Assembly: GCA_963787255.1 (NCBI GenBank)
Contig: CAWBCJ010000017.1
Location: 1 to 14,843 of the forward strand
Reading direction: 5' to 3'
Origin: Methanobacteriota archaeon
GTDB lineage: Archaea; Methanobacteriota; Methanobacteria; Methanobacteriales; Methanobacteriaceae
Length of the DNA stretch: 14,843 bases
The notes beneath the pieces were generated by a model, which had not been told where the DNA came from, searched no databases, and saw nothing but the letters and a program-made list of their open reading frames with translations. Each line of letters opens with the position of its first letter. The stretch's first letter is position 1. Made by a program: the position numbers and the translations under genes. Positions 1-14,843 of this stretch are shown piece after piece.

Positions 1-847
1 GTGTGCGCCGGTGAGCACCAACCCCGTGCCCTCCGAGATAGGAAAGGCGTAGTCGAAGGCCGGCGTCATGACCCATTCGCCCTTCTTGTCGATGTATCCC
101 CAGAGATTCTGGTCGTTGCAGGCGGGCGCCAACCCGTTGACCATGGCTCCCACGAAGGCATACATGGGCTCGATGGCCCATTTGCCCTTCTTGTCGACGA
201 AGCCCCACACGCCGTGCGCGGTCATGGCCGGGGCGATGCCGTCGTGGAAGGAGTCCACCGTGGCGAAGGTGGCATCGATCACCAGTTTGCCTTTATCGTT
301 GACGTAGCCCCAGTAGCCACCCGAGTCGTCTGACACGGGCGCCATGCCCTCGGAGAACCGCTGCGCCATGGCGTACACCGGCTGGATGACCCATTCGCCC
401 TTGGCGTCGATAAAGCCGTAACGCACTGTCTGGGTGTTCTCGTTGATGGCCGCCGCAGGCGCCTTGCCCTCGGAGAACAGTCCGGCCGCCTGAAAGACCG
501 GCTGTATGGCCATGGCCCCCGTCGCGTCGACATAGCCCCAGAGGCTGTCGGCGGTCTGGCACGGCGGCGAAGCCCTCCGAAAAGGGCTGTGCGTACTTGA
601 ACTGAGGTTCGATGACGAAGGCTCCGGTGAAGTCAACGTAGCCGTAGAGGCCGTCGTCGTTGGCCATGCGGTAGAGTGCGGGGCTTCCACCGGCGGCAGC
701 GGTGCCGCCTGACGAACCGTCTGGGCCGCCTGGAGTGTCGTTGGCGCATCCGGCCGCGAGCGCAGCCAGCAGAGCCACAACGCCAACTGTGAAAAACAAC
801 CAGCGGGCACGCGCCCGCGAAAAAGCACCTGTGTGCAGCGTCATCAC
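1..847 (-). CDS. WG-repeat (KWG/WG beta-repeat) lipoprotein; one frameshift near 559; runs off the left window edge
   Basis: Signal peptide with lipobox LAAG-C and a G/S/A linker, then repeats: YGYVDFTGAFVIEPQFKYAQPFSEG, and after removing one extra C near 559, WGYVDATGAMAIQPVF..FSEG, YGFIDAKGEWVIQPVY..FSEG, WGYVNDKGKLVI, WGFVDKKGKWAIEP, WGYIDKKGEWVMTP. The second frame stays open to position 1. Confidence 0.88.
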
Positions 848-912
848 GAACCAGATCCTTTCGACCAGGCCACCGCACCATCGCGTGGCTGCCTACCTCA
901 TGCCGTGTACAT

Positions 913-1413
913 GACAATAAACCAATTTTAAGCCTTGATGATTATTTGTTTGTAACTGTAAATAATGAAAAAATTAGGGATAATAATTATACTCATACTT
1001 TCTCCCGTTTAAACAATAAATGTGGGTTTGGGAAAAGAAGTCAGGGAAATCATTTTTTTACATCGCACAGGTTAAGAGTTGCTTTTGGGACAGCTGCAAA
1101 AAATAGAGGTATTGATCCTGTAGATATTAGGCGGATGTTAGGTCAAAGGGGAGATGAATTAGACGATGCGTATCTTAAAACAACTGCAGAACGTCTAAAA
1201 AGGGAGTATATGCGATTTGTGCAGGACTTGAGTGTTGAGAAGTTAGAAGTCATTGAGTACGGTGACAAAGAAGTTAGGGAAATGGCGCGTAAGATTGAGA
1301 TTCTGGAGAAGGCCCATTATAATTATAATGAGATTTTTGAGCTTTATGATGATCCTGAAGTTACCCAGGCAATTATCAGGGCTAAGGCACGTAAGATTCA
1401 AGAAAATAAGTAA
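913..1413 (+). pseudogene. Tyrosine recombinase/integrase, C-terminal half only (5' end cut by the GC junction)
   Basis: Catalytic motifs H-R-L-R (FTSHRLRVAF), MLGQ and Y (DDAYL). The frame is open upstream of 946 (DNKPILSLDDYLFV) and runs into the GC-rich block without a start or the first catalytic Arg. Confidence 0.85.
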
Positions 1414-1535
1414 AAGAAATATTTCCTATAAACTTGTGAATTCATAATTCATAAGATTATTACTTTTCTGATGCTCTTTAACTAGATCCTATTTATACTC
1501 TTGAAAAATAATCTCTAATTGGAATTATTTTCACG

Positions 1536-1555
1536 TTCACAAAACTAATTGTGAA
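1536..1555. promoter_or_regulatory. Inverted repeat TTCACAA-N6-TTGTGAA, candidate operator of the early operon
   Basis: Perfect 7-bp arms in the intergenic region after the integrase, downstream of a TATA-like TTTATAC at 1492-1498. Confidence 0.4.
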
Positions 1556-1592
1556 ATTCGATGGACCATTCGAAATATGGGAATAATTTAAA

Positions 1593-1604
1593 GGAGCGAC
1601 CAAA
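1593..1604 (+). promoter_or_regulatory. GGAGCGACC motif copy 1 (RBS of ORF 1607)
   Basis: GGAGCGACCAAACC followed by ATG at 1607. Confidence 0.75.
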
Positions 1605-1606
1605 CC

Positions 1607-1825
1607 ATGAATACATTACCGCAGGATCTAAGGATCCTGCATATCCCAAATAAGAGTATAATAGAATTAAAAAGTTTATTTTGTAATTTAAGTAAGAAAA
1701 ATAGTTATTCTTTTTTAGTTTGTTTTTCTTCGCATTCTTTAGCGAGTAAAAGGCGTCTTGTAACTTCTAAAGCAATTTTAGCAGGATCATATTTCCATTC
1801 TTCAGGGATATTTGGAGGCGTTTGA
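1607..1825 (+). CDS. Possible leader ORF (72 aa) translationally coupled to the ParB-histone gene
   Basis: ATG follows the motif RBS and its stop overlaps the next ATG (TGATG 1823-1827). The protein sequence is not recognisable. Confidence 0.4.
   Translation: MNTLPQDLRILHIPNKSIIELKSLFCNLSKKNSYSFLVCFSSHSLASKRRLVTSKAILAGSYFHSSGIFGGV
1621..1640. repeat. Perfect hairpin GCAGGATC-TAAG-GATCCTGC
   Basis: 8-bp GC-rich inverted repeat about 20 nt downstream of motif copy 1. Confidence 0.7.
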
Positions 1826-2799
1826 TGGAAAACAGAAAATACATGGTTACAATGAAGGATCCGATGTGTTTTGAGGCACATCCACTAAATAAGGAAATAT
1901 ACGGAACTGAAGAATTAGATACTGATTTTAAAGAAGATATACGCGATAACGGTATAAGAGAGCCTATTGTGGTAAATAGGGAAGGCTTCATTATTTCAGG
2001 TCACCGCAGGTGGAGAGCTGCAATAACAATAGGTTTACCTGAAGTACCTATCAGAATTGAAGAATTTGAAAGCCCAGAAAAAGAGGAAGAGGCTTTAATT
2101 GCTTATAACAAGCAACGTGTTAAGACTAAAGCCCAAATAGTCAGGGAGATTGAGAAATTAAATTTAATATATGAAACCCTTGGACTATCAAGACGTTTGA
2201 GCAATTTAAAGCAGTTTGAAGAAAATAACACCGAAGTTGCACTAGTGCAACATCGGGAGGAAGACACTAAAATACCAGAAAACATTCCCAACTTTGAAAG
2301 TGGCCTTGAATATTTAAACACACTTAAAAAAGGAGCCATCCCTGGAAAAGGAAGGAGTAATGAGCAGATAGCTGAACAGGTTGGAGTTTCTCCAAGGACA
2401 GTTTCAAGTGTAAAAAAAGTCTTGAAAGCATCCAATGATGAGGATCCTAAAATCAGTGAACCTGCAAAAGAAATCAAAAAAGATATGGAATCTGGAAAGA
2501 TTGGCTTTAAAACAGGCGCTGAAAAGGTGAATAAACTTATTAAGAAATCTAAAGGCCACAAAGGAAGACCTAAAGGTTCTACCAGCGGACCTATAAGTGC
2601 AACAGGTGTTAAAACTTTGGTTCAAAGTAGGTTAGCTGATTTTACTGCAGAAAATACTGGAGTTGAAATACTCAGGGAATGGCTTATGGAACAGGCCCAG
2701 GAGAAATCCTTGGAAGCAAAGAAATTAGCTCTTAAACGTGGGGATAAAAAGGTAAGGGAATCTGATTTCAGGCGTGTACTTGATAAGCCTGCTTATTAA
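1825..2799 (+). CDS. ParB/Srx-domain protein with HTH, AT-hook and C-terminal histone fold
   Basis: ParB-N: HPLNKEIYG...DIRDNGIREPIVV...IISGHRRWRAA..IGLPEVPI. HTH: SNEQIAEQVGVSPRTVSS. AT-hook-like KGRPKG. Tail EAKKLALKRGDKKVRESDF resembles the archaeal histone a2-L2-a3 region. RBS GGAGG at 1814-1818. Confidence 0.85.
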   Translation: MENRKYMVTMKDPMCFEAHPLNKEIYGTEELDTDFKEDIRDNGIREPIVVNREGFIISGHRRWRAAITIGLPEVPIRIEEFESPEKEEEALIAYNKQRVKTKAQIVREIEKLNLIYETLGLSRRLSNLKQFEENNTEVALVQHREEDTKIPENIPNFESGLEYLNTLKKGAIPGKGRSNEQIAEQVGVSPRTVSSVKKVLKASNDEDPKISEPAKEIKKDMESGKIGFKTGAEKVNKLIKKSKGHKGRPKGSTSGPISATGVKTLVQSRLADFTAENTGVEILREWLMEQAQEKSLEAKKLALKRGDKKVRESDFRRVLDKPAY

Positions 2800-3062
2800 T
2801 GCTCATGGAATTTTATGAGAAAATACCGAGAGGTGAACTGGAATTGACAGCAAAAAAAGAGGAATTTATTGGAGCGACCGAAGAACAAATAAATCCGATG
2901 AGTAGGATTAACATGCAAGATTACCTGGACACAATCCAGTACAAAGGCGCTGGAAAAAGGAATAAGCGAATAAAGGAATTTTGCATTAAATATAATCTCA
3001 CCAAAGAGGATTATGACATTTTAAGGATGAAAATAGTTAAAAATCAGTGGGTATTGGCATGA
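2799..3062 (+). CDS. Hypothetical viral protein (alternative start at ATG 2898 after motif copy 2)
   Basis: ORF coupled to the upstream stop (TAATG) and containing the motif at 2871. Confidence 0.6.
   Translation: MLMEFYEKIPRGELELTAKKEEFIGATEEQINPMSRINMQDYLDTIQYKGAGKRNKRIKEFCIKYNLTKEDYDILRMKIVKNQWVLA
2871..2882 (+). promoter_or_regulatory. GGAGCGACC motif copy 2, inside a hairpin spanning 2861-2896
   Basis: GGAATTTATT-GGAGCGACCGAAGAACA-AATAAATCC; in-frame ATG at 2898. Confidence 0.7.
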
Positions 3063-3202
3063 GAACGCTCAAGCCTAACAAATCCCATTCATCCTTTTTT
3101 TATAATGCGTGGCCTTTAATTGGATGGATAACTGCAATTATTGCCTATGTTATTATCATGATGATGCTTAATGACATCCGAATTTACAATTTTGGAGGTT
3201 AA
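3059..3202 (+). CDS. Small single-TM membrane protein (47 aa), not in the ORF track
   Basis: MRTLKPNKSHSSFFYNAWPLIGWITAIIAYVIIMMMLNDIRIYNFGG; ATGA overlap with the upstream stop; ends just before the next ATG. Confidence 0.7.
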   Translation: MRTLKPNKSHSSFFYNAWPLIGWITAIIAYVIIMMMLNDIRIYNFGG

Positions 3203-3204
3203 CC

Positions 3205-3468
3205 ATGAAAAGAAAGTCAAGAAATTTTAAAACACCTAAAAATACTGACAACTGGCAGAAAGAGCTTTTAAAACATATAGGCATGAGGGTAGACATAACA
3301 ATGAAATTAGGCAACGACAAAGCAATCTATAAAAATGTAAAGATTGTTAACGTGGACATTAAAGCAGGAAACAGGTTCATGATATTAACTGAGGAAGGTA
3401 AGGAATTAACATTAATCGGTGGAAATTATCTAATTGAAAAATTACCTGAAGAACGGCAAATATCCTGA
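3205..3468 (+). CDS. Putative Sm/Lsm-like (Hfq-type fold) protein
   Basis: Helix (WQKELLKHIG), then beta pattern MRVDITMKLG..IYKNVKIVNVD..N.FMIL...LTLIGGNY, resembling the Sm1 and Sm2 motifs. RBS GGAGG. Confidence 0.5.
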   Translation: MKRKSRNFKTPKNTDNWQKELLKHIGMRVDITMKLGNDKAIYKNVKIVNVDIKAGNRFMILTEEGKELTLIGGNYLIEKLPEERQIS

Positions 3469-3523
3469 AAATTTAAAGAAGGATTATGCAGAAAAAGTGA
3501 AAGCATCTAAATAAAATTTAAAT

Positions 3524-3535
3524 GGAGCGACCAAA
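3524..3535 (+). promoter_or_regulatory. GGAGCGACC motif copy 3 (RBS of ORF 3538)
   Basis: GGAGCGACCAAACT followed by ATG at 3538. Confidence 0.75.
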
Positions 3536-3537
3536 CT

Positions 3538-3654
3538 ATGATGAAAAATAATGATATAGATCCAATTGCAATTAAAGAATCAGAGCACTGGTTTGAAGGT
3601 ATAAAGCAGGCCATAAAAGAAGTTGACGAACTTATAGGAGACAGGGCAAGATAA
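3538..3654 (+). CDS. Small hypothetical protein (38 aa), not in the ORF track
   Basis: MMKNNDIDPIAIKESEHWFEGIKQAIKEVDELIGDRAR; motif RBS; ends in an AGGGC..GCCCT hairpin followed by a T-tract. Confidence 0.65.
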   Translation: MMKNNDIDPIAIKESEHWFEGIKQAIKEVDELIGDRAR

Positions 3655-3684
3655 GCCCTATTTTATTATTTTTAAGGTGATCCT

Positions 3685-4035
3685 ATGAGTAATAGAGTAG
3701 ATCGAGGATGGAAATTATACCTGCAAGATGCTGTTACAGTTGATTTTATAGCAAATGACAGCATGGCCTTTGATGTAAAAAGCAGCAGTGGAAAAGAAAT
3801 CTACAAAGTTGACATGGTAGATGATACCTGGAACTGCAGCTGCCATGATTTCCATAACAGAAATAAAAGGGAAAGCACTAAACAGTTAATTTGTATGCAT
3901 ATTCATGCTTCAATGTTCAAATTAGCTGAACTTTACAGGTTTGAGGAATTAAAAAAGGTTATTGCACAAGTAAAAAAAGGAAACAATAACAATGTGGTTT
4001 TAAAAGCATTTGAAGAAATTGAGGGAGGATTATGA
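3685..4035 (+). CDS. SWIM zinc-finger protein
   Basis: FDVKSSSG..YKVD....WNCSCHDF...ICMHIHA (CxC-n-CxH); RBS AGGTGA. Confidence 0.85.
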   Translation: MSNRVDRGWKLYLQDAVTVDFIANDSMAFDVKSSSGKEIYKVDMVDDTWNCSCHDFHNRNKRESTKQLICMHIHASMFKLAELYRFEELKKVIAQVKKGNNNNVVLKAFEEIEGGL

Positions 4036-4124
4036 ATTCTAATAAAATATTGAAAACAGACAGCCGAGGACATTCATTCTACGTGCAGGTAATAGAGGAG
4101 CTGGAGGAAGAGAAAGATGGTTAA
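4032..4124 (+). CDS. Very small hypothetical protein (30 aa)
   Basis: MNSNKILKTDSRGHSFYVQVIEELEEEKDG; RBS GGAGGA, ATGA overlap, and it bridges the two neighbouring ORFs. Confidence 0.5.
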   Translation: MNSNKILKTDSRGHSFYVQVIEELEEEKDG

Positions 4125-4332
4125 ATGTATTTTTACTGATGGTGCAGAATGCTGCAAATGCGTAATATGTAATCATGATATAAATAAGCCAAAGATCCAT
4201 GAATATACCTGTGCTAATTGTGGATACAAAGGAAAAACCAAAAAAGAAGCATACTGGTTTGAAGAATGCCCTAAATGTGGAGGAATTGTTGGATTTAAAC
4301 CTTGTCCAGCTAAAGATATGGTGGTTAACTAA
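4117..4332 (+). CDS. Cys-rich zinc-ribbon protein (10 Cys in 71 aa)
   Basis: CCKCVIC cluster plus YTCANCG...ECPKCGG; RBS GGAGG. Confidence 0.75.
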   Translation: MVKCIFTDGAECCKCVICNHDINKPKIHEYTCANCGYKGKTKKEAYWFEECPKCGGIVGFKPCPAKDMVVN

Positions 4333-4341
4333 TTTTATATT

Positions 4342-4353
4342 GGAGCGACCGAA
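4342..4353 (+). promoter_or_regulatory. GGAGCGACC motif copy 4 (RBS of ORF 4355)
   Basis: TTGGAGCGACCGAAT followed by ATG at 4355. Confidence 0.75.
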
Positions 4354-4354
4354 T

Positions 4355-4831
4355 ATGAAAGAAAATCAAGAGTATCAATTAGTAACTATGAAGATCCCTA
4401 TTGAACTTTATACAAAATCTAAAGCTTTGATTCCAGATAGAACTAAGGATTATATAGATCATTTGAATCGTAGAATAGCAACTAGTGATAGAGCTAGCAT
4501 GATTCAAAGAGAATTAGACGAAATTAAAACACGTCAAGAATTTTTAGAGCATGAATTAGAACTAGAATTAGGATTAAAAGAAGAGGAAGAGAAAGTATCT
4601 GGACAGTATAATGATATATTTAAACAGGCAATACAAACGATTAGAAACATTATAAATGCTGAAGGATGTATTGGCATGGATAAAATGGAATCTATTGCAG
4701 CTTTAAAGGATATCAGCTTTGCTGAATTAAAAATTAATTTACCTGAAGATATCCTGGAAAAGGTTGTTAATTACCATCCTCAGTATGTAGAGAAGGTTGA
4801 TTCACAGTTTGCAAGAGGAATAAGTAAATAA
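4355..4831 (+). CDS. Putative DNA-binding protein: RHH-like N-terminus plus coiled coil (start moved from 4199)
   Basis: YQLVTMKIPIELYTK beta-alpha pattern; acidic coiled coil IQRELDEIKTRQEFLEHELELEL; motif RBS before ATG 4355. Confidence 0.65.
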   Translation: MKENQEYQLVTMKIPIELYTKSKALIPDRTKDYIDHLNRRIATSDRASMIQRELDEIKTRQEFLEHELELELGLKEEEEKVSGQYNDIFKQAIQTIRNIINAEGCIGMDKMESIAALKDISFAELKINLPEDILEKVVNYHPQYVEKVDSQFARGISK

Positions 4832-4852
4832 AAAAAATAAGGAGGAGTTATT

Positions 4853-5098
4853 ATGGGAAAATTTGAAGAAGATAAAAAAAGAAGGGAAGAATTAATTAAA
4901 AAGGATATTGAGACTGCAGGAAAAATTTTAAAAAAATATCTTAAACCAGTATATGAAGGGGCTGGAGAAAAATGGACTGAAGAAAACGATGAAGATATGA
5001 ATACATTAGTAAAAGCAATATCCAATGCAGCAATACTTAAATCTCTTAATATTACATCAGAAATGTTAATAAAAGTTTTAACGCATCCAAAAGAGTAA
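4853..5098 (+). CDS. Hypothetical protein (81 aa)
   Basis: Strong RBS AAGGAGGAG; helical, charged sequence. Confidence 0.75.
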   Translation: MGKFEEDKKRREELIKKDIETAGKILKKYLKPVYEGAGEKWTEENDEDMNTLVKAISNAAILKSLNITSEMLIKVLTHPKE

Positions 5099-5109
5099 AT
5101 AATGAAAAT

Positions 5110-5168
5110 TTTGTAAAAATGAATGATACCAGGCCGAAACCTGGCATCAGGGAGCGTGCAACTCCCAT
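5110..5168 (-). ncRNA. Candidate sRNA-1 (double hairpin; first hairpin carries UUGCACGCUCC)
   Basis: On the minus strand: TATA TTTATATT (5196-5189), then AUGGGAG-UUGCACG-CUCCC, then UGAUGCCAGG-uUUCGg-CCUGGUAUCA, then a U-tract. The A/C mismatches on + become G-U pairs on -. Confidence 0.6.
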
Positions 5169-5235
5169 CTTAATTATTATCATAATCAAATATAAAGATA
5201 TGTAAAAATAATTTATTTTTTAAAATTAGTAAACT

Positions 5236-5308
5236 TGAAAGTACCAGGACCTAGATCCCGGTACCCAAGGGAATATTATTGGAGCGACCAAACTCTAATA
5301 AATCCCAT
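5236..5308 (-). ncRNA. Candidate antisense sRNA-2 (loop region UUUGGUCGCUCC, complementary to the motif sites)
   Basis: On the minus strand: TATA-like TTAAATATTTATAC (5340-5327), then AUGGGAUUUAUUAGAG-UUUGGUCG-CUCCAAUAAUAUUCCC, then GGUACCGGGA-uCUAGg-UCCUGGUACU, then UUUC. Confidence 0.65.
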
Positions 5309-5406
5309 TCCATATCTGTTTAGATAGTATAAATATTTAATGTAGAAATGCAAAGTAATAATTAACCCCACAAAAAAGACCGAAATCCAGATCGGAGGCA
5401 TAATAA

Positions 5407-6237
5407 TTGCATTCTGCGAAAGCTAAAATTTGTAAATATTGTGGTGAAATAATCGAAAACCCTACGCATTGGAAACAGAAATATCATCATGATCCAATGA
5501 ATGGAAATACTGAAAGCTGTACTGAACTGGCAAATAAAGAAAGAATCCGAATTGCAGTACGTAGATACCGTAAAAAGTTGATTAATAATGGATTAACAAC
5601 AAAAGGGAAAAAACGAAAATTAAATGTCTGCCAAATATGTGGAAGGATTCATAATGGAACTAATGGAATTAGATGTAGCAGCTGTTCTGATATAATTGTT
5701 TATGAACAGGCACTTGCAAGACGTAGAGATGCAGAACTAATTTTATGGAAACGACGCGTCAAAAGAAGAGATAATAATCTATGCCAGAAATGTGGAACGA
5801 ATAAAGATTTACAAGTACATCACATTAAAAATTACGCCCAATATCCTGAAATGAGATATAAGATTAATAACGGGATAGTATTATGTAAATCATGCCACAT
5901 CAGCCTTGATGGATTTCATTCAAAATATGGACGTAAAAACAATAATTTAAAGCAATTAGATAAATTTTTAGACAAAAATATTGTTTGTGAAGAATGTGGT
6001 GAAAATTTAAAAGAATCATTCCATGGAAACACGAAATATTGCAAAGAATGCAGGATAGATTTAAGACGCGAACAAACAAGAATCGCAATGCAAGACTATA
6101 GGCACAGATGGCCCTGGAGCAATCGAAATTTTAAAGGTTCAAGGAATGCACATTTAGGTGAAAGTGCTTTACCTAATTTCGATAAAGAATTCAAAAAAGT
6201 GCACAGGGAGAAAGTTAGATTGTGTGGCAATGATTAA
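5407..6237 (+). CDS. HNH endonuclease with flanking zinc-finger modules
   Basis: VKRRDNNLCQKCG..LQVHHI...NNGIVLCKSCH..FH; additional CxxC pairs on both sides; RBS GGAGG with TTG start. Confidence 0.9.
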   Translation: MHSAKAKICKYCGEIIENPTHWKQKYHHDPMNGNTESCTELANKERIRIAVRRYRKKLINNGLTTKGKKRKLNVCQICGRIHNGTNGIRCSSCSDIIVYEQALARRRDAELILWKRRVKRRDNNLCQKCGTNKDLQVHHIKNYAQYPEMRYKINNGIVLCKSCHISLDGFHSKYGRKNNNLKQLDKFLDKNIVCEECGENLKESFHGNTKYCKECRIDLRREQTRIAMQDYRHRWPWSNRNFKGSRNAHLGESALPNFDKEFKKVHREKVRLCGND

Positions 6238-6287
6238 CGTTTACACAAAATTATTGCTCACACCTTATTTTAAGGAAAATTAGTTTA

Positions 6288-6524
6288 TTGGAGCGACCAA
6301 CTATTAAATTCAGAAGAAGAGGTATCAAACCTGAAACTTCAGAGATTTATTCTATTTTAAATGAATGTCCTAATCCTAACTGCGATGCAGAAAATGATAA
6401 GTTAAGGCTAGATGAATCCCGTGCTGAAATCAGCTGTACGGTATGTGGTTATGTAATTGCAGATAGTGTTGATTATATTCATTCTGATAAAGAATTTTTA
6501 ATGATTATTGAAAAAGAACCTTAA
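6288..6524 (+). CDS. Stand-alone TFIIB/TFB-type zinc-ribbon protein
   Basis: CPNPNC....LRLDESRAEISCTVCGYVIADSVD fits the TFB N-terminal ribbon pattern; no cyclin folds. Start uncertain. Confidence 0.8.
   Translation: MERPTIKFRRRGIKPETSEIYSILNECPNPNCDAENDKLRLDESRAEISCTVCGYVIADSVDYIHSDKEFLMIIEKEP
6290..6300 (+). promoter_or_regulatory. GGAGCGACC motif copy 5 (start region of the TFB-ribbon gene)
   Basis: TTTATTGGAGCGACCAACT overlapping the predicted start. Confidence 0.72.
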
Positions 6525-6730
6525 TTTTTTATCCAATTCCAGGATAATTTTTGCCGGTATAACTAAGAGATTATAATCGCTCATATCTCTTGCAGGCAGG
6601 AGGGAGTTTACTCTTGTCCTCCTTCCATTATATTCTCATATATAGATGCATTTATGAGGGCCTTAACCAGTTCAAGGCTTAAAATCGCAACATAACAACA
6701 CGATTTTGTAGTTTCTATAATAATATTCTA

Positions 6731-6768
6731 AGGGATTTTTTTGGACAATCCCTATTTTTTTATTTTAT
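6731..6768 (+). terminator. Hairpin plus oligo-T tract
   Basis: AGGGATT-N9-AATCCCT followed by ATTTTTTTATTTT. Confidence 0.5.
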
Positions 6769-6787
6769 TGATTTTAATGGAGATGAA

Positions 6788-7102
6788 ATGATGGATAAGG
6801 ATTTAGCAAATAAATTAACAGCATTCCTTGCATTCCTGATAGGTATGTTTGCTTTTTTAAGTCAAATATTTCCACAGCTGCAAGAAGGAATAGACAAAAT
6901 AGGCAGCGTATTAATAGTAGTTGTACCTGCTGAATACCAAGCACCCGTTCAAATGTTTCTTATAGCAATTGCAGTAGTAGTAGCAATAATAGTCTATGCC
7001 TACAATTACACTACAAGTACAGCTCTTGCAGAAGAGAAATTTAATCAAGGATTGAAACTACCATCACCTGCTGAAGAACAGGTAATAGCAGACGAACCAT
7101 AA
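6788..7102 (+). CDS. Membrane protein, 2-3 TM (holin-like)
   Basis: Hydrophobic stretches LTAFLAFLIGMFAFL and MFLIAIAVVVAIIVYAY; acidic tail; RBS GGAG. Confidence 0.65.
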   Translation: MMDKDLANKLTAFLAFLIGMFAFLSQIFPQLQEGIDKIGSVLIVVVPAEYQAPVQMFLIAIAVVVAIIVYAYNYTTSTALAEEKFNQGLKLPSPAEEQVIADEP

Positions 7103-7117
7103 ACCTTATTTTTTAAA

Positions 7118-7402
7118 GTGGTGGGATGGATGGACACACTTGAAATAATTTTAACAGTAATTGGCGTTATAATAGGTCCCTCAATTGTTATAGGGATATT
7201 CCTTGTTAATACACTTCAAAGACTTGCAAAAGTAGAAGAATGTGTAGATCCTGAAGATGCTAAAAGTATCGCAAGATTAGAGACAAAAATGGATTTTGTA
7301 CTTAAGTGGATAGCAGCTTTAAATGGAGAAATAAGTGATAAAAAAGAATTTAAAGAGTTCCTTGAGCAATTAAAAGAAATAGCAAAAAGTAAAGGATTAT
7401 AA
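7118..7402 (+). CDS. Single-TM protein with coiled coil (holin/lysis-accessory-like); start may be 7127 or 7130
   Basis: IILTVIGVIIGPSIVIGIFLV followed by RLAKVEE...IARLETKMDF. Confidence 0.65.
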   Translation: MVGWMDTLEIILTVIGVIIGPSIVIGIFLVNTLQRLAKVEECVDPEDAKSIARLETKMDFVLKWIAALNGEISDKKEFKEFLEQLKEIAKSKGL

Positions 7403-7415
7403 TATTTTTCAATAT

Positions 7416-7700
7416 TCATTCACCTAAATATTTTACCTCTGCTGTTCCAAGCTCTATTGACTCCTTTGTTGATTCTTTTAACACAGCACTACATGATTTT
7501 ATTTGATGGAAAGGAATCACATCTACAGTTACATAATTCATTTTATTAGTCCATTGACGATGGATGAATACTGCAGAAGTAATTTGAATCTTAATTGTTT
7601 TCTGCGCATTTTTTTCTTCATCAATAAGTTCTGTAATAGATGTTTTGCCCCCATATGGCATGTTTAATTGTAAATCAACCTTTACAATGGTTTCTTCTAT
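7416..7700 (-). CDS. Hypothetical protein, opposite to the viral operon; possible ATA start at 7700, ATG at 7661
   Basis: The ORF extends in frame 13 codons upstream of ATG 7661 to an ATA preceded by AGGTGAT. Confidence 0.6.
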   Translation of the reverse strand: MEETIVKVDLQLNMPYGGKTSITELIDEEKNAQKTIKIQITSAVFIHRQWTNKMNYVTVDVIPFHQIKSCSAVLKESTKESIELGTAEVKYLGE

Positions 7701-7837
7701 GATATTATCACCTTCCTTTAGATTGATATTAATAACTAGTATTTTCTATTTTATTAAATTTTATTCATTTCGATCACTATTAAAATACTATTTTGATTAT
7801 TTGCAACTCAAAAATATGAAATTAGCGTGGAGAGCAC

Positions 7838-9133
7838 GTGATAAGTATGGACGAATACATTAAAATAAAAGATATAAAACCACATCCAGAAAATCCAAGA
7901 AACCACTCCGAAGAACAAGTGCAAAAGATAGCAAAAAGCATCAAGGAATTAGATTGGGGAAGACCCATAATTATCAGCCATGATAATTACATTCTCGCAG
8001 GTGAAGGAGCATACCTCGCAGCGAAGAATGTACTAAAATTAAGCGAAGTGCCATTTAGGCGTATGAAGCATCTGCATAACACTCCAGAGGCAGTTGCATA
8101 TATGCTAGCAGATAACAAACTGAATGAAGAATCAGATTGGAACTATGGAAAACTACAAACCATAAATACCGACCTGCGGCTTAAAGGATTCGATGTTAAA
8201 TTAACCGGATTTAGCGAATACCGAATTACAGGAAATTGAAGAAAAAAATAGGATCCAATTAAAAAAGAAGATATACGGGAAGATGAACATGACCCTGATG
8301 CAGAAGTTGAGATGCAATATGTAAAGAAGGCGATTTATGGCAGCTTAGGAGCACATCGGTTACTGTGTGGCGATTCAACCGATAATAATGATATTAACAA
8401 GCTTATAGATAATGATGATATTGATTTAGTTTTTACGGATCCTCCATATGGACAAATTGCCCAAGATTGGGATGTTAAATTAAATTGGAAAGCAATATCC
8501 CAATTATTTAATCAAATATTAACCCCCGAAGGACAGATCCATATCTTCTGCAAATTACCCTTCGGAAATGATATAATAAACAGTTTCACGGAAAAAGACT
8601 TTGATTTTTGGCAGGAATGCATCTGGGAAAAACCCCAATTTGCAAACTTCGTAGAGGGCAGGTTCCAGCAGAACCATGAAAACATCTACTTTTTCAAAAG
8701 AAAAAAAAGCAAAGTAATGGACATGGTTACTAATTTAGATTTAATTATGGACGAAGGAGAACCATATAAACTTAAAGGTGTGGGCGTATCACCCATAAAT
8801 GGCATGAAAAGAACCGACAAAGTAAATGAAACTGGGGAACGATACCCTAAAACAGTAATGCGATATGCAGCAATGCAATCAAGCTCAGAACGAGTCGGTC
8901 ACCCTACACAAAAACCGTTAAAATTATGCAGTAAATTCATTTTATACGGGGCAAACATGGGCGGTAAAGTATTCGACCCATTCGGTGGCAGCGGCAGCAC
9001 ATTAATCGCATGCGAACAAACAAACCGTAAATGTTACATGATGGAATTGGATCTGAAATATTGCGACATAATAATTAAACGGTGGGAAGACTTTACAGGG
9101 GATAAAGCAACTCTCATAAAACCCACCAATTAA
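7838..9133 (+). CDS. ParB-N fused beta-class amino-DNA methyltransferase (likely m6A), frameshifted around 8215-8310
   Basis: 5' part: IKPHPENPRNH..PIII...ILAGEG...MLADNKLNEESDW. 3' part: LGAHRLLCGDS, VFTDPPY (motif IV), HPTQKP, DPFGGSGSTLIA (motif I), MELD..YCDIIIKRW. Confidence 0.9.
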
Positions 9134-9167
9134 TAAAAAAGTATAACCAATATGGAGGGCCAAAACC

Positions 9168-9708
9168 ATGGAAGAAACACAAAAACACAAAGAAGCATTC
9201 GAACACTTCTACCTAAAACTCCACGAACAACTTTCAGTAAAAGACAGTATAATTTCAGTTGCTGAAACTTTCAAAGTAACTGAAAGAACTGTTTGGAGCT
9301 GGAAAAAGAAGCTTAAATGGGAAGATAAAATCGCTGTAAGAGATGCAGAAATACAGGAAGGCTTAGAAGATAAGACAAACACCACAATTATTGATAATAA
9401 AGCCAAGTATCTGGGCATGCTGCATTCTAGTTTAAATAAATATGTTGAAGAGATTAATAGCAAGGAAAGAGAGCCTCTTCCTATTGAAAGCACCACGGAT
9501 TTGGTGCGCTTAATTCGTGAAAGTTTACTGATCCAAAACCAACCTACTGAAATCCAAAAACAGGACGGATCTATGAAGCATGAGATCAGTGGAAATGTTA
9601 AAACTGAAAATGTTTTCACGTCGTGTGGATAAGCTTGTAAGTTTTATTGATGCAGGTAATGAATCAGAAGAATCAGATAAGAGCAAGATCCAACATGATG
9701 ATCAATAA
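9168..9708 (+). CDS. terS: Terminase small subunit (putative); probable frameshift near 9620
   Basis: N-terminal HTH VAETFKVTERTVWSWKKKLKWE; lies directly before TerL. An alternate frame continues RVDKLVSFIDAGNESEESDK to TAA 9706-9708, overlapping the TerL start. Confidence 0.7.
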
Positions 9709-11098
9709 CTACAATGGGAGTAGTCTTACTAAACGTGATTTACTTCTTTTTGATGAAAGTATCTGTAAAAATGATTACATCCTATATAAACCGTATCAAC
9801 GACAAGCATGGCCTATCTTTGAGGCAAATAAGCCTTTAAGAAACAATGAAGCCGAACCAGCTTCTCGTTGGTGCGGGTGGTTACGGGGGTAAAACTTACT
9901 TGGCTCTATGCTTGCAGCACAATACTTAGATATCCATGATTACAGCTGCTTAGTCACAAGGCTTAATTATGCTGAATTAACAGGTGAAGACAGTATATGG
10001 GAGAACCTTAAAGCATGGGCCTGTGATGAAGAACGATTAGGGGATTTGGCATGCATCGCTAATGAAAGTAAACTCCGAATTACCTCTCCTTATGGGGCTA
10101 AGGTATGGTTTAAAGCTTTTGATCATGTTAAAAAGAAAGGTAAAGTTAAAAGTGAAAGCTATGACCGTATCGTTAATGATGAGGCCAGCGAATTAGATCC
10201 TAATGTATTAACCTTTTTATTTAGATCCCTAAGAAATGATTTAGATGCAAGAATTAATATTGCAATGATAAATCTCTCCAACCCTGGAGGCCCAAGTACA
10301 GAATATTTAAGAGAAACTTATGTGGATGGCGTTAAACCTTATTTTCCCCTTGATTGGAGGCATAATCCGTTTATTAACAAGATAGTGTATAGTAAAACGC
10401 TTGATAATCTTACTTTTATGGATCGGAAATACCAGAAAGATGGTGATTGGCATTACACCCCACAATCTGGGGATATATTTGATGCCGAAATGATTAGTAA
10501 AGCCACAATCAGTATGAAAAGGTACAATGAGATATTAGAAGAAAATGAGTTACTAATGATGGTCCGCGGATGGGATATTGCTGCTACTGATAAAAAGCAA
10601 AATGATTTCACCGCATCAACCCTGTTAATGGTGTTTAAAAATGATTTAGAAGTTGTGGTTAAGCAGGAATCATTTAAGAAATTACCGGGTCACCTGGAAA
10701 AGCGGATGAAAGTAACCATGGCCGTAGATGATGTTGAGGTTGAACAGTGGATTGAGCATCAGCCCGCCGCCGCGGGGGATATTGTTGATTATCACTGGCT
10801 TAATGAATTTGATGATTATAATGTGACCATGGTGCCTGTGTTTAAGAATAAGGTTATACGTGCAGGTCGGTTAGTGCCAAGAATTAACGAAGGAAAGTTA
10901 CTTTTTTTAGATGATCCTAAAAATCCTTATCTGGATATTTTCACTAAGCAGGCGATTAACTTCCCCAATTTTGATAAAATTAAAGAAGATGATGAGGAAA
11001 CAAAGCACGATGACCGTATTGACAGCTTATCATTAATAATTAATAAGCTTCATCCGATTAAGGATAAGAAGGATCAGGTTAAATTTAATCCAAATTAA
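9695..11098 (+). CDS. terL: Terminase large subunit; frameshifts near 9850 and 9900
   Basis: PYQRQ adenine-binding motif; Walker A LLVGAGGYGGKT in an intermediate frame; Walker B IVNDEASE; SNPGG coupling motif; RNase H-like GWDIAA..NDFTA; HDDRIDSLS. Confidence 0.92.
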
Positions 11099-11108
11099 GG
11101 AGTAAAGC

Positions 11109-12433
11109 ATGATGTCAACAATAAAAATAGTTTACCTATCATGAGTCATGATCCTAATGATAGGATTATGCAGGCCATGAGAAGATATGATCCACATTTC
11201 ATTAATTATTCAATACGCCAAATAACAGATTTCCCTGTTGCATCTGATAATGAATTACTCCTGCACTATCTACGTGGAGCTGCAGGTCCATTTATTGATG
11301 TTAAAAGTGTATGCAGAACTTGGTGTGGGCTGGAAGTTAAACCTGTAGGATTTGAAGATGAAGAATCAGGCCTGGAAGCAAAGAAATTAACCGAGAAATT
11401 CTTTAAAAAGATTGATTTTTACACTACAATGATACAACACGCAGTATTTTACCGTGTGCTTGGAAGATCTAGCATAGTTAAAACCTATGATAAAAGTGGT
11501 GGATTCTATTACAGCCCCAAAGAGAAAGTAATGGGAATAGACTCCATTAACCCCATGACACTTACCGATAAGAGTATCAGGGAAGTTATGGCAGATACTA
11601 CAGGCACCAAGGCATACGAGCAATATGCAACTACCGTGGACCGTAAATCAGATACATGTTACACTTAGAGGCGGATAGGGTTATTTATTCTACTAATAAT
11701 CCTATGACAAGGTATAGTCCGTATGGTAATTCTGATTTAATGAACAGTATAACTGATTTAAGGGCTATTGCAAGATTCCCACATTACCGTGATCGACTTG
11801 GGCATAAGTATGCTAATCTTTTCCGTGTTATTGAAATTGACACCGAAAAGATTGCTGAAAGTGAATATGGCCAGAAGATTAAAGATGATGCACTGGAAGC
11901 GCAGAAGTATCTTGATGACACCGCCCAATTTTACCGTAAACAGGAACAGGACTGGAGGAACCGTGGCGGTTTATGACTGGCAAAAAGTAGTTGAGGCCAG
12001 CTTCGGAGGAAAAGAAGTTAAACTAGGCGAAATTGAAAGGACCAGCCTTGAAAGTCTTAGCTTTAAACAGACGAGTACCCATGCCACTGCTCATGTTTTC
12101 ACAATATGTTAACCGTGATACACTTGCGTACTCTTGCAGAAACTTTTATCAGCATGCTAGAGAAAGGGACCCAGGAATTTTGTTCATACTCCAATTATTG
12201 AAGGCACTGCTAATGAGTACTTGGAGATGAATGAAATAAACGAGGGCCGATTAGAAGTTGAATATAACCCATTTCTTGCTAAGAATTTACTTGAAGCAGC
12301 CCAGATTATCAGTTCGGTCTGGCCTACAGGTGCATTTAGCCGGCCGGATATCCGTGAATGGCTGGACAAACCATTATTACCTAATCTTGGTGGTGATGAC
12401 TGGAAAAAATTAGGCTTAAAACCCTATGCCTAA
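11109..12433 (+). CDS. Portal protein (putative), split by several frameshifts
   Basis: Directly after TerL with RBS AAGGAG. Fragments 11141-11668, 11656-11976, ~11950-12230 and 12221-12433 tile about 430 codons. Portal-like patterns: YRVLGRS, INPMT, SPYGNSDL, SRPDIREWLD. Confidence 0.75.
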
Positions 12434-12517
12434 ATTTTTCATTTTTTTAAGTTCTTCTACATCCTCCAAGAAGTGCAGTTTACCATTTACAATCATACTA
12501 AATAGTTAAAAAAATAT

Positions 12518-12865
12518 TTAGAATAAGCTTTTAAATATTCCCTTAAAACCAGAATTATCCTCTTTACGTGTCTCAACCTTTTCAATTTTATCCATAAACT
12601 TCTTCTGCACTTCCAGAAGGGTTTCAAGATTTCTTACTTGCTCCTTAAATCCATTCCTTTCATTTTTGAGTGATTTAATCATTTCACCAAGTTTTTCAAA
12701 GTCAGTTTTGCTCATAATTTTAACTTGTTCATCCTTTCCAAAGGGATTATTTTCATCTAGCATTATAATGTATTTGTCATGTTCTATTCTGCGTTCTCGC
12801 ATCTTTTTATCTATTAATATGCTCACGTTTTTGCATTTTCTTACTCTTGCATCTATAACTTCCAA
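12518..12865 (-). CDS. Hypothetical coiled-coil protein
   Basis: 115-aa ORF with RBS AGGTGAT before TTG; heptad-rich C-terminal half. Confidence 0.7.
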   Translation of the reverse strand: MEVIDARVRKCKNVSILIDKKMRERRIEHDKYIIMLDENNPFGKDEQVKIMSKTDFEKLGEMIKSLKNERNGFKEQVRNLETLLEVQKKFMDKIEKVETRKEDNSGFKGIFKSLF

Positions 12866-12992
12866 TTATATCACCTGTAATCTACTAGGTGCTGTTGTAT
12901 TTAATGGGTTTAGTGCAAGAGCGTCTGAAAAGTAAAAATAAATTATGGAAATTGAGTTTAGTCAATTAATATTATTTTTATAGTTAATCATT

Positions 12993-13388
12993 TTATTCTC
13001 TATAATGTTCAATATGGTCAAATAAGCTGAATATAATTACAATAAACATCCCTATTATGGACCAGTGGTAATCATGGAGTTCTTTAGCATCAGATTTTTC
13101 CAACTCTCTCCCTATATCCTTAAGAGCATTTATATAATGGTCCAATCTCATTTCCATTCCACCTACTTCAGATTCATAAGGCAAAAGTTCCAGATTCCTG
13201 GCCTTAATCATTAAAAAATCAGATACATCCTGCAGCGATTTCCCAATTTCCTTTAAATCCCCTTTTTTGATAATATTGGGATCTACCATGCCTTTTATAA
13301 ATGAAGTACTTGAAGACGCTTCAAAATGGCCTATCATATCTAAAAATGATTTCTCAATTTTACTTAGATCTGGTTTATCTGAATTCAT
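12993..13388 (-). CDS. Hypothetical protein with a hydrophobic C-terminal helix
   Basis: 131-aa ORF with ATG start; WSIIGMFIVIIFSLF. Confidence 0.7.
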   Translation of the reverse strand: MNSDKPDLSKIEKSFLDMIGHFEASSSTSFIKGMVDPNIIKKGDLKEIGKSLQDVSDFLMIKARNLELLPYESEVGGMEMRLDHYINALKDIGRELEKSDAKELHDYHWSIIGMFIVIIFSLFDHIEHYRE

Positions 13389-13615
13389 GAATAATGTTAT
13401 TGTAAAAAATACTATTTCAATATTAGTAATTATTCCTGAGTTACTGGATTTAAAAGATTGACAAAAATGTTTAATTAAATGATATATGAATTTTTTGCGA
13501 TTATATAACCTTAATTAACATCTATTTTTTTAAAATAACATTTTTAAGTATTTAAAATTAGAAATTTATCATTGGTATACATTTAATTCTTTCATCTTTC
13601 AACCATTTCATTACT

Positions 13616-13945
13616 TTATTTATCTTTATGTTCCTCTTCCATTTCAAGTTCTTTATTTATTCTATCTAATTCTTCTTGAATTTCTTTAATATGTGTTTTT
13701 CCCCTTTCAATATTTTTTTTAAGCTCATTATATCGATCTTTATCTTTTTCAGGATCAATATTATCTATTTGACTTTTCCAGTATTCCATCTGTTTTTTTA
13801 CCGCATCTAAATATTCCATTTCAACTCTTTTCCTGTCTTTAACTGTTTTAATTATATTAATGCGAGTTTTATTGAATTGATCTTCGTTTTTTTTCTGCTT
13901 GTTGCGTTCTTCCCTTATTTTTTTATCATAATCTTCTGAAGACAT
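13616..13945 (-). CDS. Hypothetical highly charged coiled-coil protein
   Basis: 109-aa K/E-rich ORF with an AT-rich, TATA-like upstream region. Confidence 0.7.
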   Translation of the reverse strand: MSSEDYDKKIREERNKQKKNEDQFNKTRINIIKTVKDRKRVEMEYLDAVKKQMEYWKSQIDNIDPEKDKDRYNELKKNIERGKTHIKEIQEELDRINKELEMEEEHKDK

Positions 13946-14237
13946 GAATATATTTATATTTTAATAATTATAATAAAATTATTAATATTATTTGTAATTA
14001 AATTTGTATATCTAAAGACATTACCCCTGTAAATTCTAAACACCCATTTTCAACTAATTCTATTAAATAGCATTTATATTCGTTTAAAATAGCTTAAAAT
14101 TTATTTATAACCTTATTTTTTACTTAGAAACTATTATTAATCAGTGAAGTATAACATAATAAACAATTAAATTTTAAAAAACATTCAATTTGCTAAAAAT
14201 GTTTAATAAGACTGATTATGCTTAAAAAGGGGAATTC

Positions 14238-14843
14238 ATGTGGAAAATCAGAGGTAAAGCTCTAAATAAATCAAAAGTCAATCCCAAAGAAAAAGGAAAA
14301 TTTCATATAGTAGGTATTGGTTCATCTGCAGGCGGACTGGAAGCTTTAAAGGATTTATTCAGTAATATGCCCTCTGACACGGGTATGGGATTTGTTTTAA
14401 TTCAACATCTGGATCCCACACATAAAAGCAGTATGGCAGAATTAATTGCAAGATATACTGATATGGAAGTTCTTGAAATTCAAGATAATATGCCAGTTAA
14501 ACCAAATAAAGTGTATGTCATTCCCCCAAATAAGGACATAGGAATTATAGATGGTGTATTAAGCCTTATTAAGCCTTTAGAACCTCATGGTTTTAGAAGA
14601 CCAATTGATTTATTCTTTCAATCTTTAGCAGATGATCAAGAAGAGAATTCAATTGGAATAATTCTTTCAGGATTCGGATCAGATGGAACAAAAGGGTTAG
14701 CAGCCATTAAAAGCAGTGGGGGAATGGTTATGGTTCAAGATCCAACTTCTGCATCCTCAGATGGCATGCCCCGTAGTGCCATAGCCACTGATCTTGTAGA
14801 TTATATAGCCTCACCAGAAAAAATACCTGAATATTTAATCTCA
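14238..14843 (+). CDS. cheB: CheB methylesterase-domain protein (probable N-terminus of a CheB/CheR-PAS fusion); runs off the right edge
   Basis: IVGIGSSAGGLEAL, FVLIQHLDPTHKS, VYVIPPNK, RPIDLFFQSLA, ILSGFGSDGTKGL, GMPRSAI (S/H/D triad); no REC domain; open to the end of the window. Confidence 0.9.
   Translation, partial: MWKIRGKALNKSKVNPKEKGKFHIVGIGSSAGGLEALKDLFSNMPSDTGMGFVLIQHLDPTHKSSMAELIARYTDMEVLEIQDNMPVKPNKVYVIPPNKDIGIIDGVLSLIKPLEPHGFRRPIDLFFQSLADDQEENSIGIILSGFGSDGTKGLAAIKSSGGMVMVQDPTSASSDGMPRSAIATDLVDYIASPEKIPEYLIS

Follow-up and report, generated by a model that had tools for sequence, protein, structure and literature searches.

The nearest precedent for a protein that couples a ParB-type domain to a histone-like one is ParB of the plasmid pNOB8 from Sulfolobus NOB8H2, a 470-residue component of an AspA-ParB-ParA system encoded in an aspA-parB-parA operon, whose C-terminal domain, according to the accessible portion of its description, folds like CenpA and binds DNA non-specifically (PMC5120986). 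Here, we describe a gene (1825..2799, + strand) from a 14,843-nucleotide stretch of Methanobacteriaceae DNA (GenBank assembly GCA_963787255.1, contig CAWBCJ010000017.1, positions 1 to 14,843; henceforth the window), which codes for a 324-residue protein, P0001, with a ParB-CTPase-fold domain, a helix-turn-helix (HTH) domain and a C-terminal archaeal histone fold. It is a real, rare and selected fusion of Methanobacteriaceae viruses, and we read it, with moderate confidence, as an orphan ParB-type DNA clamp or regulator of temperate tailed viruses, in which a captured histone fold would serve as the C-terminal domain for dimerisation and DNA grip. Like pNOB8 ParB, P0001 is a ParB of an archaeal mobile element, with a homologous N-terminal domain (hhalign 94%) followed by a histone-like, predicted DNA-binding C-terminal domain. 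In contrast to it, P0001 has a tail that is detectable as HMfB-type from its sequence, a ParB-type HTH and no parA, whereas the C-terminal domain of pNOB8 ParB is CenpA-like by structure only, with neither a histone match in Pfam nor sequence similarity to the P0001 tail (hhalign 0.1%). The fold of the pNOB8 C-terminal domain was not among the matches listed in either of our fold searches with the tail. A second point of reference is the orphan ParB-CTPase-fold fusions, which, in the accessible parts of the survey describing them, lack a ParA motif, reside on mobile elements and bear lineage-specific C-terminal domains (bioRxiv 10.1101/2025.10.10.680097 = PMC12704722). P0001 agrees with these in having PF02195 outside a parAB operon, no ParA motif, a fused domain and a mobile-element setting; it differs from them, above all from the ParB-HTH-methyltransferases, in that its cargo is a histone fold.

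The fusion comprises eight protein clusters at 90% identity and extends down to ~30% identity. Clade A, that of the window, holds P0001/P0003, P0004 (68%) and P0005 (59%). Clade B is represented by P0034, a 14-member cluster with a GRKT loop in 14/14 members, and is found on the IMG/VR contig L004 and the 2.36-Mb contig L014; clade C and deeper forms comprise P0049, P0050 (two G183 proviruses), P0051, P0053 and P0054. Full-length versions occur in only two of the 328 genomes of the order, those of the window (G000) and G183, and the fusion is therefore rare. Further fusions were recovered neither in a 329-genome search of the phylum, which covered almost the same genomes as the order search, nor when 21,625 reading frames from 262 loci were examined. 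Scans of IMG/VR with P0001 and alignment A2 yielded nothing and later scans a single viral contig, while a scan of genome contigs with P0034 yielded nothing. Searches of 50,697 phage and 72,556 plasmid records returned none covering 80% of P0034, the phage records gave no match to a host histone, and the candidate P0033 was discarded as a repetitive false match. An origin of the tail through an indel, which the first-pass annotation had named among the findings that would overturn its proposal of a fusion, is rejected: the tail is open in P0004, P0005 and clades B and C, the exception among relatives being P0003, from another assembly, with a frameshift at residue 278. In addition, a 151-base contig of run X6 spans 2590-2740 gap-free; the HTH-tail junction is not bridged by it.

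The gene runs from an ATG at 1825 to a TAA at 2799 with no internal stops, and it has full-length homologues; a TTG lies in frame at 1822. The order of its domains (NTP fold, HTH, C-terminal domain) matches that of canonical ParB/Spo0J, Noc and KorB, the PDB sequences of which are matched by the N-terminal domain with E-values of 5e-10 to 3e-5. This ParB-CTPase-fold domain (residues 28-98; 1906..2118, + strand), delimited through Pfam, an alignment with Myxococcus ParB and the family alignment, matches ParB_N (PF02195) at residues 28-92 with 37.2 bits against a cut-off of 26.3, and residues 23-230 match the ParB-like PHROG 4715 (E 1.6e-18). Box II reads GHRR (residues 59-62), which agrees with the GxxR signature of ParB and upholds the earlier identification of this domain, with His in place of the Glu of canonical ParB. 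Box III reads AYN (93-95) and is devoid of the usual Glu, which is present in clades B and C and is Q or G in P0004 and P0005. Hence, P0001 departs from canonical ParB in both boxes, in having no ParA motif and in its histone-fold C-terminus. The HTH domain (residues 176-242; 2350..2550, + strand) is a fast-evolving four-helix unit with 21-58% identity among relatives. Ten HTH-type Pfam families match residues 175-198, every one below its cut-off (best E 7e-4), and AlphaFold2 places helices at 179-186 and 190-203 with a predicted local distance difference test score (pLDDT) of 77-90, which together sustain the HTH assignment. The full-length single-sequence model is poor (pLDDT 50), and the weak Foldseek list obtained with it is headed by KorB, Noc and ParB. 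Between the HTH and the tail lies a basic linker with a GRP core (2551..2589, + strand; KGRPKG at residues 246-251), recognised as a motif in relatives and putatively a minor-groove arm. It goes with the histone tail, being present in 8/10 fusion rows against 0/97 other relatives longer than 300 residues. Thus, the motif itself, previously called AT-hook-like, stands, but the AT-hook label does not extend beyond motif resemblance: Pfam AT_hook is absent from the list of 15 families with E<=1 for P0001, and the arm of P0001 has KGRP rather than the RGRP core of AT-hooks, which is found in P0003 and P0005.

The C-terminal region (residues 257-319; 2593..2781, + strand) is assigned to a degenerate archaeal (HMfB-type) histone fold from profiles, an AlphaFold2 model, fold searches, shuffled controls and a heterodimer model. 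Taken alone, the last 69 residues of P0001 match zero Pfam families, failing to reach the CBFD_NFYB_HMF cut-off; no histone was found by single-sequence searches of PDB or PHROGs or by a 3-sequence tail profile against PDB, and the top matches of the tail searches, such as protein 4.1, were dismissed as chance. The sole NCBIfam match of the tail is archaea_histone (E 0.071). Among the 10,647 open reading frames (ORFs) of the window's genome, four that encode host histones come right after the self match when ranked with a profile built from three clade-A tails. Only 1/2000 shuffled tails scored as high as the P0001 tail against a host-histone profile, and in pairwise comparisons with the four host histones 0, 0, 0 and 5 of 1000 did so. 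With relatives added, the tail profile reaches HPhA (E 1e-6), HMfA (2e-4) and HMfB (7e-4), and hhalign of the tail to a host histone gives 95.8%. Further, the relatives P0034, P0049 and P0050 pass the CBFD_NFYB_HMF cut-off of 21.4 with 24.1, 26.1 and 30.2 bits.

From an alignment that contained no cellular histones, AlphaFold2 predicts tail helices at 8-20, 27-54 and 61-67 (13, 28 and 7 residues; pLDDT 74), that is, the three-helix histone fold whose absence had been fixed beforehand as the test of this assignment. The structure search proposed along with it came out as expected in kind but not in significance: all 46 Foldseek matches listed (46/46) are histones or nucleosome chains, yet none reaches E<=0.001, with rmsd (root-mean-square deviation) values of 5-11 Å. 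Histone folds top both fold searches, weakly (best Z 5.5, rmsd 7.4 Å over 60 aligned residues), and we infer that these scores are low because the query is the monomer of an obligate dimer. ESM Atlas scores of 0.86-0.87 for P0034 (ParB) and 0.77-0.79 for the P0001 tail (mostly histone families) are taken as leads only. Together, the profiles, the predicted fold and the fold searches bear out the HMf-type tail. As a separate lead from the ESM Atlas, small histone-fold clusters with members recorded as tailed viruses (Uroviricota) lie near the tail, at scores below 0.8. Histone folds are known from tailed viruses and in fusion with other domains (ZZ, Rab GTPase), and the accessible text describes phage (alpha3) histones with an N-terminal, alpha3-truncated fold and a C-terminal tetramerisation helix (PMC11390915). 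In contrast to these, the fold of P0001 is C-terminal, with an alpha2 of 28 residues (nucleosomal length) and an alpha3 of 7.

The histone tail is a swappable module on a ParB-HTH core, in the slot that is filled by methyltransferases in relatives. In P0006 and P0007, a ParB-HTH core of the clade-A kind (64-66% in ParB_N) is joined to another C-terminus, which they hold in common with a protein of a provirus in the genome G018 (46-55% identical). In the core tree, the histone-tailed proteins as a single clade are rejected (approximately unbiased test, p ~1e-138), and a quicker, wider core tree shows three changes. The alternative C-terminal module (P0006, P0007, L002:502-2121) is unannotated, bears a CxxC motif and is seen in viruses with distant cores. 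By table count, methyltransferase domains are present in 80 of the 120 best homologues (MT-A70 41, N6_N4 29, Dam 10), which favors the alternative that, as in the relatives with methyltransferases, a protective domain is carried by the ParB-HTH core along viral DNA as it enters or replicates, and that the histone fold shields it against host nucleases; the early position of the gene, implying early expression, would fit this too, and ParB-methyltransferase fusions are suggested, in the accessible part of the survey cited, to act in anti-defence (bioRxiv 10.1101/2025.10.10.680097). However, the provirus has its own separate ParB-methyltransferase (7838-9133) and the DNA-anchoring residues of the tail are eroded in the window clade, and we regard such a shielding role as improbable.

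Within clade A, the tail is the best-kept domain, with 57/65 and 48/65 positions identical (88% and 74%) against 37/67 and 26/67 in the HTH. For three pairs of clade B/C genes, the ratio of nonsynonymous to synonymous substitution rates (dN/dS) is 0.022, 0.120 and 0.139 in the tail against 0.106, 0.075 and 0.099 in ParB_N, a fourth pair being saturated; these values indicate purifying selection on the tail in the relatives. The viral tails form one group against the host histones (100/100 and 99 in two trees) and lie far from them, on a branch of more than two changes per column. This is consistent with a one-time capture of a histone from an archaeal host, the donor histone not being pinned by the tree.

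In the numbering of HMfB, and with residue roles from the accessible part of PMC6136690, a comparison of ten fusion tails reveals a consistent pattern of retention and loss. The tails share with HMfA, HMfB, HPhA and the capstone variants the fold, the helix lengths, D59 (10/10 tails), L28, L32 and A43 (8 or 9/10), the R-K-T loop (GRKT, once NRKT; 7/10) and the modelled handshake. They differ from these histones in being virus-encoded and fused to 250 residues of ParB-HTH, and in several replaced residues: H49 is K/R/S and L62 is R/K/N in 10/10 tails, K13 is Gln throughout, and in the aligned rows R19 and G16 have been lost. The tetramer interface of HMfB-type histones (L46, H49, D59, L62, small G16) is thus not preserved, and with H49, L62, K13, R19 and G16 changed the tails fall outside what is expected of a hypernucleosome-forming histone. 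With the four-helix-bundle residues lost, the tail should still dimerise, yet stacking into chromatin of the host type is no longer expected. Clades B and C have a longer loop 1 than HMfB-type histones. In the window's clade the tail has changed further, carrying T10, K39, D52 and K54 in place of R10, I39, R52 and T54. As for the DNA anchors, the window has T10 and nothing aligned to R19, whereas R10 and Q19 are found in clades B and C. The R52-D59 salt bridge is absent in the window (D52), R52 being kept in 7/10 tails; of the dimer-core positions A24, L28, L32, I39 and A43, the window has G, L, L, K and A (3/5 identical). By these residues, the window copy is the degenerate form, with clades B and C nearer the canonical fold.

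The histone fold and the net positive charge of the tails (+3 to +5) would also suit a virion core protein compacting the packaged genome, as giant-virus histones do; Marseilleviridae DNA is packaged by viral nucleosomes, according to the accessible part of PMC11390915. For the present fusion we consider this very improbable: the gene is an early one, ~6.4 kb from the terminase genes, and virion packing is therefore unlikely, the tetramer interface is lost, and the fold bears a large ParB-HTH appendage. Tailed viruses, moreover, package naked DNA via terminase. The proposal that the protein compacts the viral genome in nucleosome-like fashion is not supported, as H49 and L62 are replaced in 10/10 tails and the gene lies near the integrase and not among the virion genes.

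Heterodimerisation with host histones, also proposed from the sequence, is supported by a model. A modelled heterodimer of the window tail with the host histone L079:164-364 scored 0.63 against 0.00 for the best of three controls, with contact agreement of at least 97% and partner pLDDT of at least 75 across runs, and its contacts are those of the canonical L1-L2 and alpha2-alpha2 handshake. The mark used is reached by 116/157 solved complexes and 2/215 mismatched pairs, figures that apply only roughly here since our own alignment was used. That the pair passes may reflect no more than its likeness to solved histone dimers; what the model shows is that the degenerate tail can still form a handshake, and it is not evidence of host-histone binding in the cell. 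The model speaks for a different reading of the fusion, in which the tail pairs with abundant host histone in hypernucleosomes and, being without H49 and L62, ends their extension, while the ParB-HTH part planted there would open up the chromatin of the provirus (anti-silencing) or of host genes. The loss of the tetramer residues in 10/10 tails and the presence of five histone loci in the host genome would accord with it, and changes at residue 49 have been proposed, in the accessible part of one study, to create capstones in Methanobacteriales (bioRxiv 10.1101/2020.04.13.037952). Yet, the capstones described there have an acidic or hydrophobic residue 49, whereas the viral tails have K, R or S; the tails stand on the long branch noted above; the model forced a 1+1 pairing without competition from the homodimer; and N-terminal ParB pairing would favor self-pairing. 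We therefore rate this capping of host chromatin as a tentative possibility. We are equally doubtful of its fuller form, a virus-encoded, nucleotide-switched histone variant whose tail caps hypernucleosomes while the ParB-HTH clamp picks the site.

The genomic setting bears on the remaining alternative. The window represents one piece of a tailed temperate provirus of Methanobacteriaceae. Its left arm carries the C-terminal half of a tyrosine integrase (946..1413, + strand; Pfam, PHROG), cut off at a GC jump near 910 and 27-33% identical to the integrases of related proviruses; this is followed by the fusion gene and small genes of the early region, then by genes for HNH and zinc-ribbon proteins, a ParB-methyltransferase and terminases. 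The ParB-methyltransferase, the small and large terminase and a probable portal, labelled from its position, occupy 7838..12433 (+ strand; Pfam, PHROG), each in pieces, and mark a tailed virus. In L014 and both G183 proviruses only a few genes likewise separate the fusion gene from the integrase, and it heads the same early block (SWIM-finger gene, homologue of 4199-4831). L004 starts just upstream of it. In all five fusion-bearing loci with context (the window, L004, L014 and two G183 proviruses), the gene is among the first after the integrase or within that early block.

The same domain logic as in pNOB8 ParB (PMC5120986, in its accessible part), together with the homology of the N-terminal domains, would speak for a role in partitioning or tethering the viral genome once excised, as first surmised. 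The loci themselves do not bear this out. The ParA-binding motif is present in 0/6 fusions tested; AAA_31/ParA gave no match on the window's contig (G000 C17), on G183 C15/C32 or within 100 kb of the G018 provirus; and no aspA-parB-parA operon surrounds the fusion genes. Of palindromes that might serve as parS, the upstream regions have only short, unshared ones. With no parA nearby, partition is therefore unlikely, all the more so as these elements carry integrases and the tail has no sequence similarity to the pNOB8 C-terminal domain; we think little of it as an explanation.

By the features tested, then, the fusion qualifies neither as a ParABS-type ParB nor as a histone of the nucleosomal kind; in its working it would resemble a ParB whose C-terminal domain is a histone fold. 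In the clamp reading that we prefer, two subunits would pair via the histone handshake, as ParB does via its C-terminal domain, and the HTH would load the dimer on virus-specific sites. Nucleotide binding would then shut the N-terminal gate, with the clamp spreading along early viral DNA, and the histone dimer, along with the basic GRP arm, may grip or bend ~30 bp without building a hypernucleosome. In the window clade, with its DNA-anchoring residues eroded, the fold would be mainly a dimerisation module. The output is predicted to be regulation, either of early transcription or of how the viral DNA is held in chromatin, for which KorB, VirB and Noc offer an analogy.

Several points weigh against this reading. 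The Box III Glu is required for hydrolysis in Bacillus ParB; it is missing in clade A, whose nucleotide cycle may therefore be changed or inactive. Nucleotide specificity, as stated in the accessible part of the ParB-fusion survey, is not predictable from sequence or AlphaFold (bioRxiv 10.1101/2025.10.10.680097). Lys39 of the window falls inside the hydrophobic dimer core, and only the heterodimer with a host histone was modelled, under a forced 1+1 pairing without homodimer competition. The dN/dS pairs come from clades B and C only and not from the window's clade A. The late genes of the window provirus are in pieces, so that this copy may be defective or mis-assembled. Lastly, a binding site has not been identified, as clades B and C have neither the repeated word of the window, described next, nor a comparable one.

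This word, the 9-mer GGAGCGACC, occurs as six oriented copies in the early region (1593, 2871, 3524, 4342, 5281 and 6290; span 1593..6298, + strand; word count). All are on the coding strand, none is found elsewhere in 2.47 Mb, and 0/200 shuffles matched the array. The word is asymmetric and often stands 2-8 bases ahead of a start codon. Its 12-base form has more than one copy in 2/328 genomes, G000 and G018; in the latter, 9/9 copies are inside the provirus (C6 27439-34367; L080), two of them within its ParB gene. As parS of the fusion the word is unsupported: clades B and C do without it, and G018 has it although its protein differs in the recognition helix and lacks the histone tail. When viral contigs were scanned with 14 bases, no locus with at least three copies was found among the matches listed, and a literature search for the word returned unrelated matches only. 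We take the array to resemble the stoperators of mycobacteriophages.

No description of the fusion was found in the literature searched, though one could still be listed in papers behind subscription, in supplements that were unreadable or in complete tables of domain fusions. 'Histone' is absent from the main text of PMC12704722, as is PF00808 or 'histone' from the six supplementary files within reach, and 'ParB' is absent from the text and readable supplements of PMC11390915. The accessible parts of the surveys of prokaryotic histones (PMC13260811, its supplements partly readable; PMC10627809; bioRxiv 10.1101/2021.11.30.470311) make no mention of ParB. The papers on archaeal viruses and proviruses PMC11705971, PMC13573593 and PMC9796341 have neither 'ParB' nor 'histone' in the main text, and the review of viral histones PMC9145170 does not mention phages or archaeal viruses. 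The fusion presents a ParB clamp that has taken on a histone fold as an exchangeable module at its C-terminus, and a second, apparently independent, union of ParB with a histone-like domain beside that of pNOB8. It bears on how archaeal viruses cope with the histone-based chromatin of their hosts, which it may manage or interfere with. Should the tail pair with host histones, it would amount to a virus-made chromatin capstone; were the switched histone variant true, it would be a site-directed chromatin remodeller that relieves the viral genome of silencing by histones or fixes it to the chromatin of the host. The family offers a small, purifiable protein with mutable parts (the Box II arginines, the HTH, the GRP arm and positions 39, 49, 52 and 62), and its natural variants range from the near-canonical fold of clades B and C to the degenerate one of the window.

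A number of further observations pertain to the provirus and its host. Near position 910 of the window, GC falls from ~62% to ~30%; the first 828 bases code for a WG-repeat protein on the minus strand and match nothing else in the genome, and the integrase is truncated there, so that 1-910 is probably an assembly chimera or foreign DNA. A second late-gene block, 82% identical, lies on C1 of the same genome (~200-10900), also in pieces and without the early region; the broken late genes may reflect decay or long-read indel errors. At 12500-12940, a 115-residue gene and ~200-400 bases around its start recur as more than 15 partial copies in the genome, often near sensor-kinase genes, and possibly represent a small mobile or regulatory element. 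The host has two identical histone genes (C1:62578-62781 and C4:13834-14037), through duplication or assembly redundancy. Both the TFIIB-type zinc-ribbon gene and the SWIM-finger gene (6288-6524 and 3685-4035) recur in related proviruses, in the early or middle region. Directly upstream of the fusion in clades B and C stands a small Cys/His-cluster gene (L004:950-1234, L075:15091-15621, L077:15850-16383), with none upstream in the window; its product presumably resembles the Ada-type metal-binding domain. Finally, GC-rich palindromes flank the integrase of L014 (7317-7346 and 8609-8644), and the G183 proviruses have comparable ones between their integrase and early genes (L077:17189-17216, L075:16336-16419), possibly as operators or attachment-related sites.

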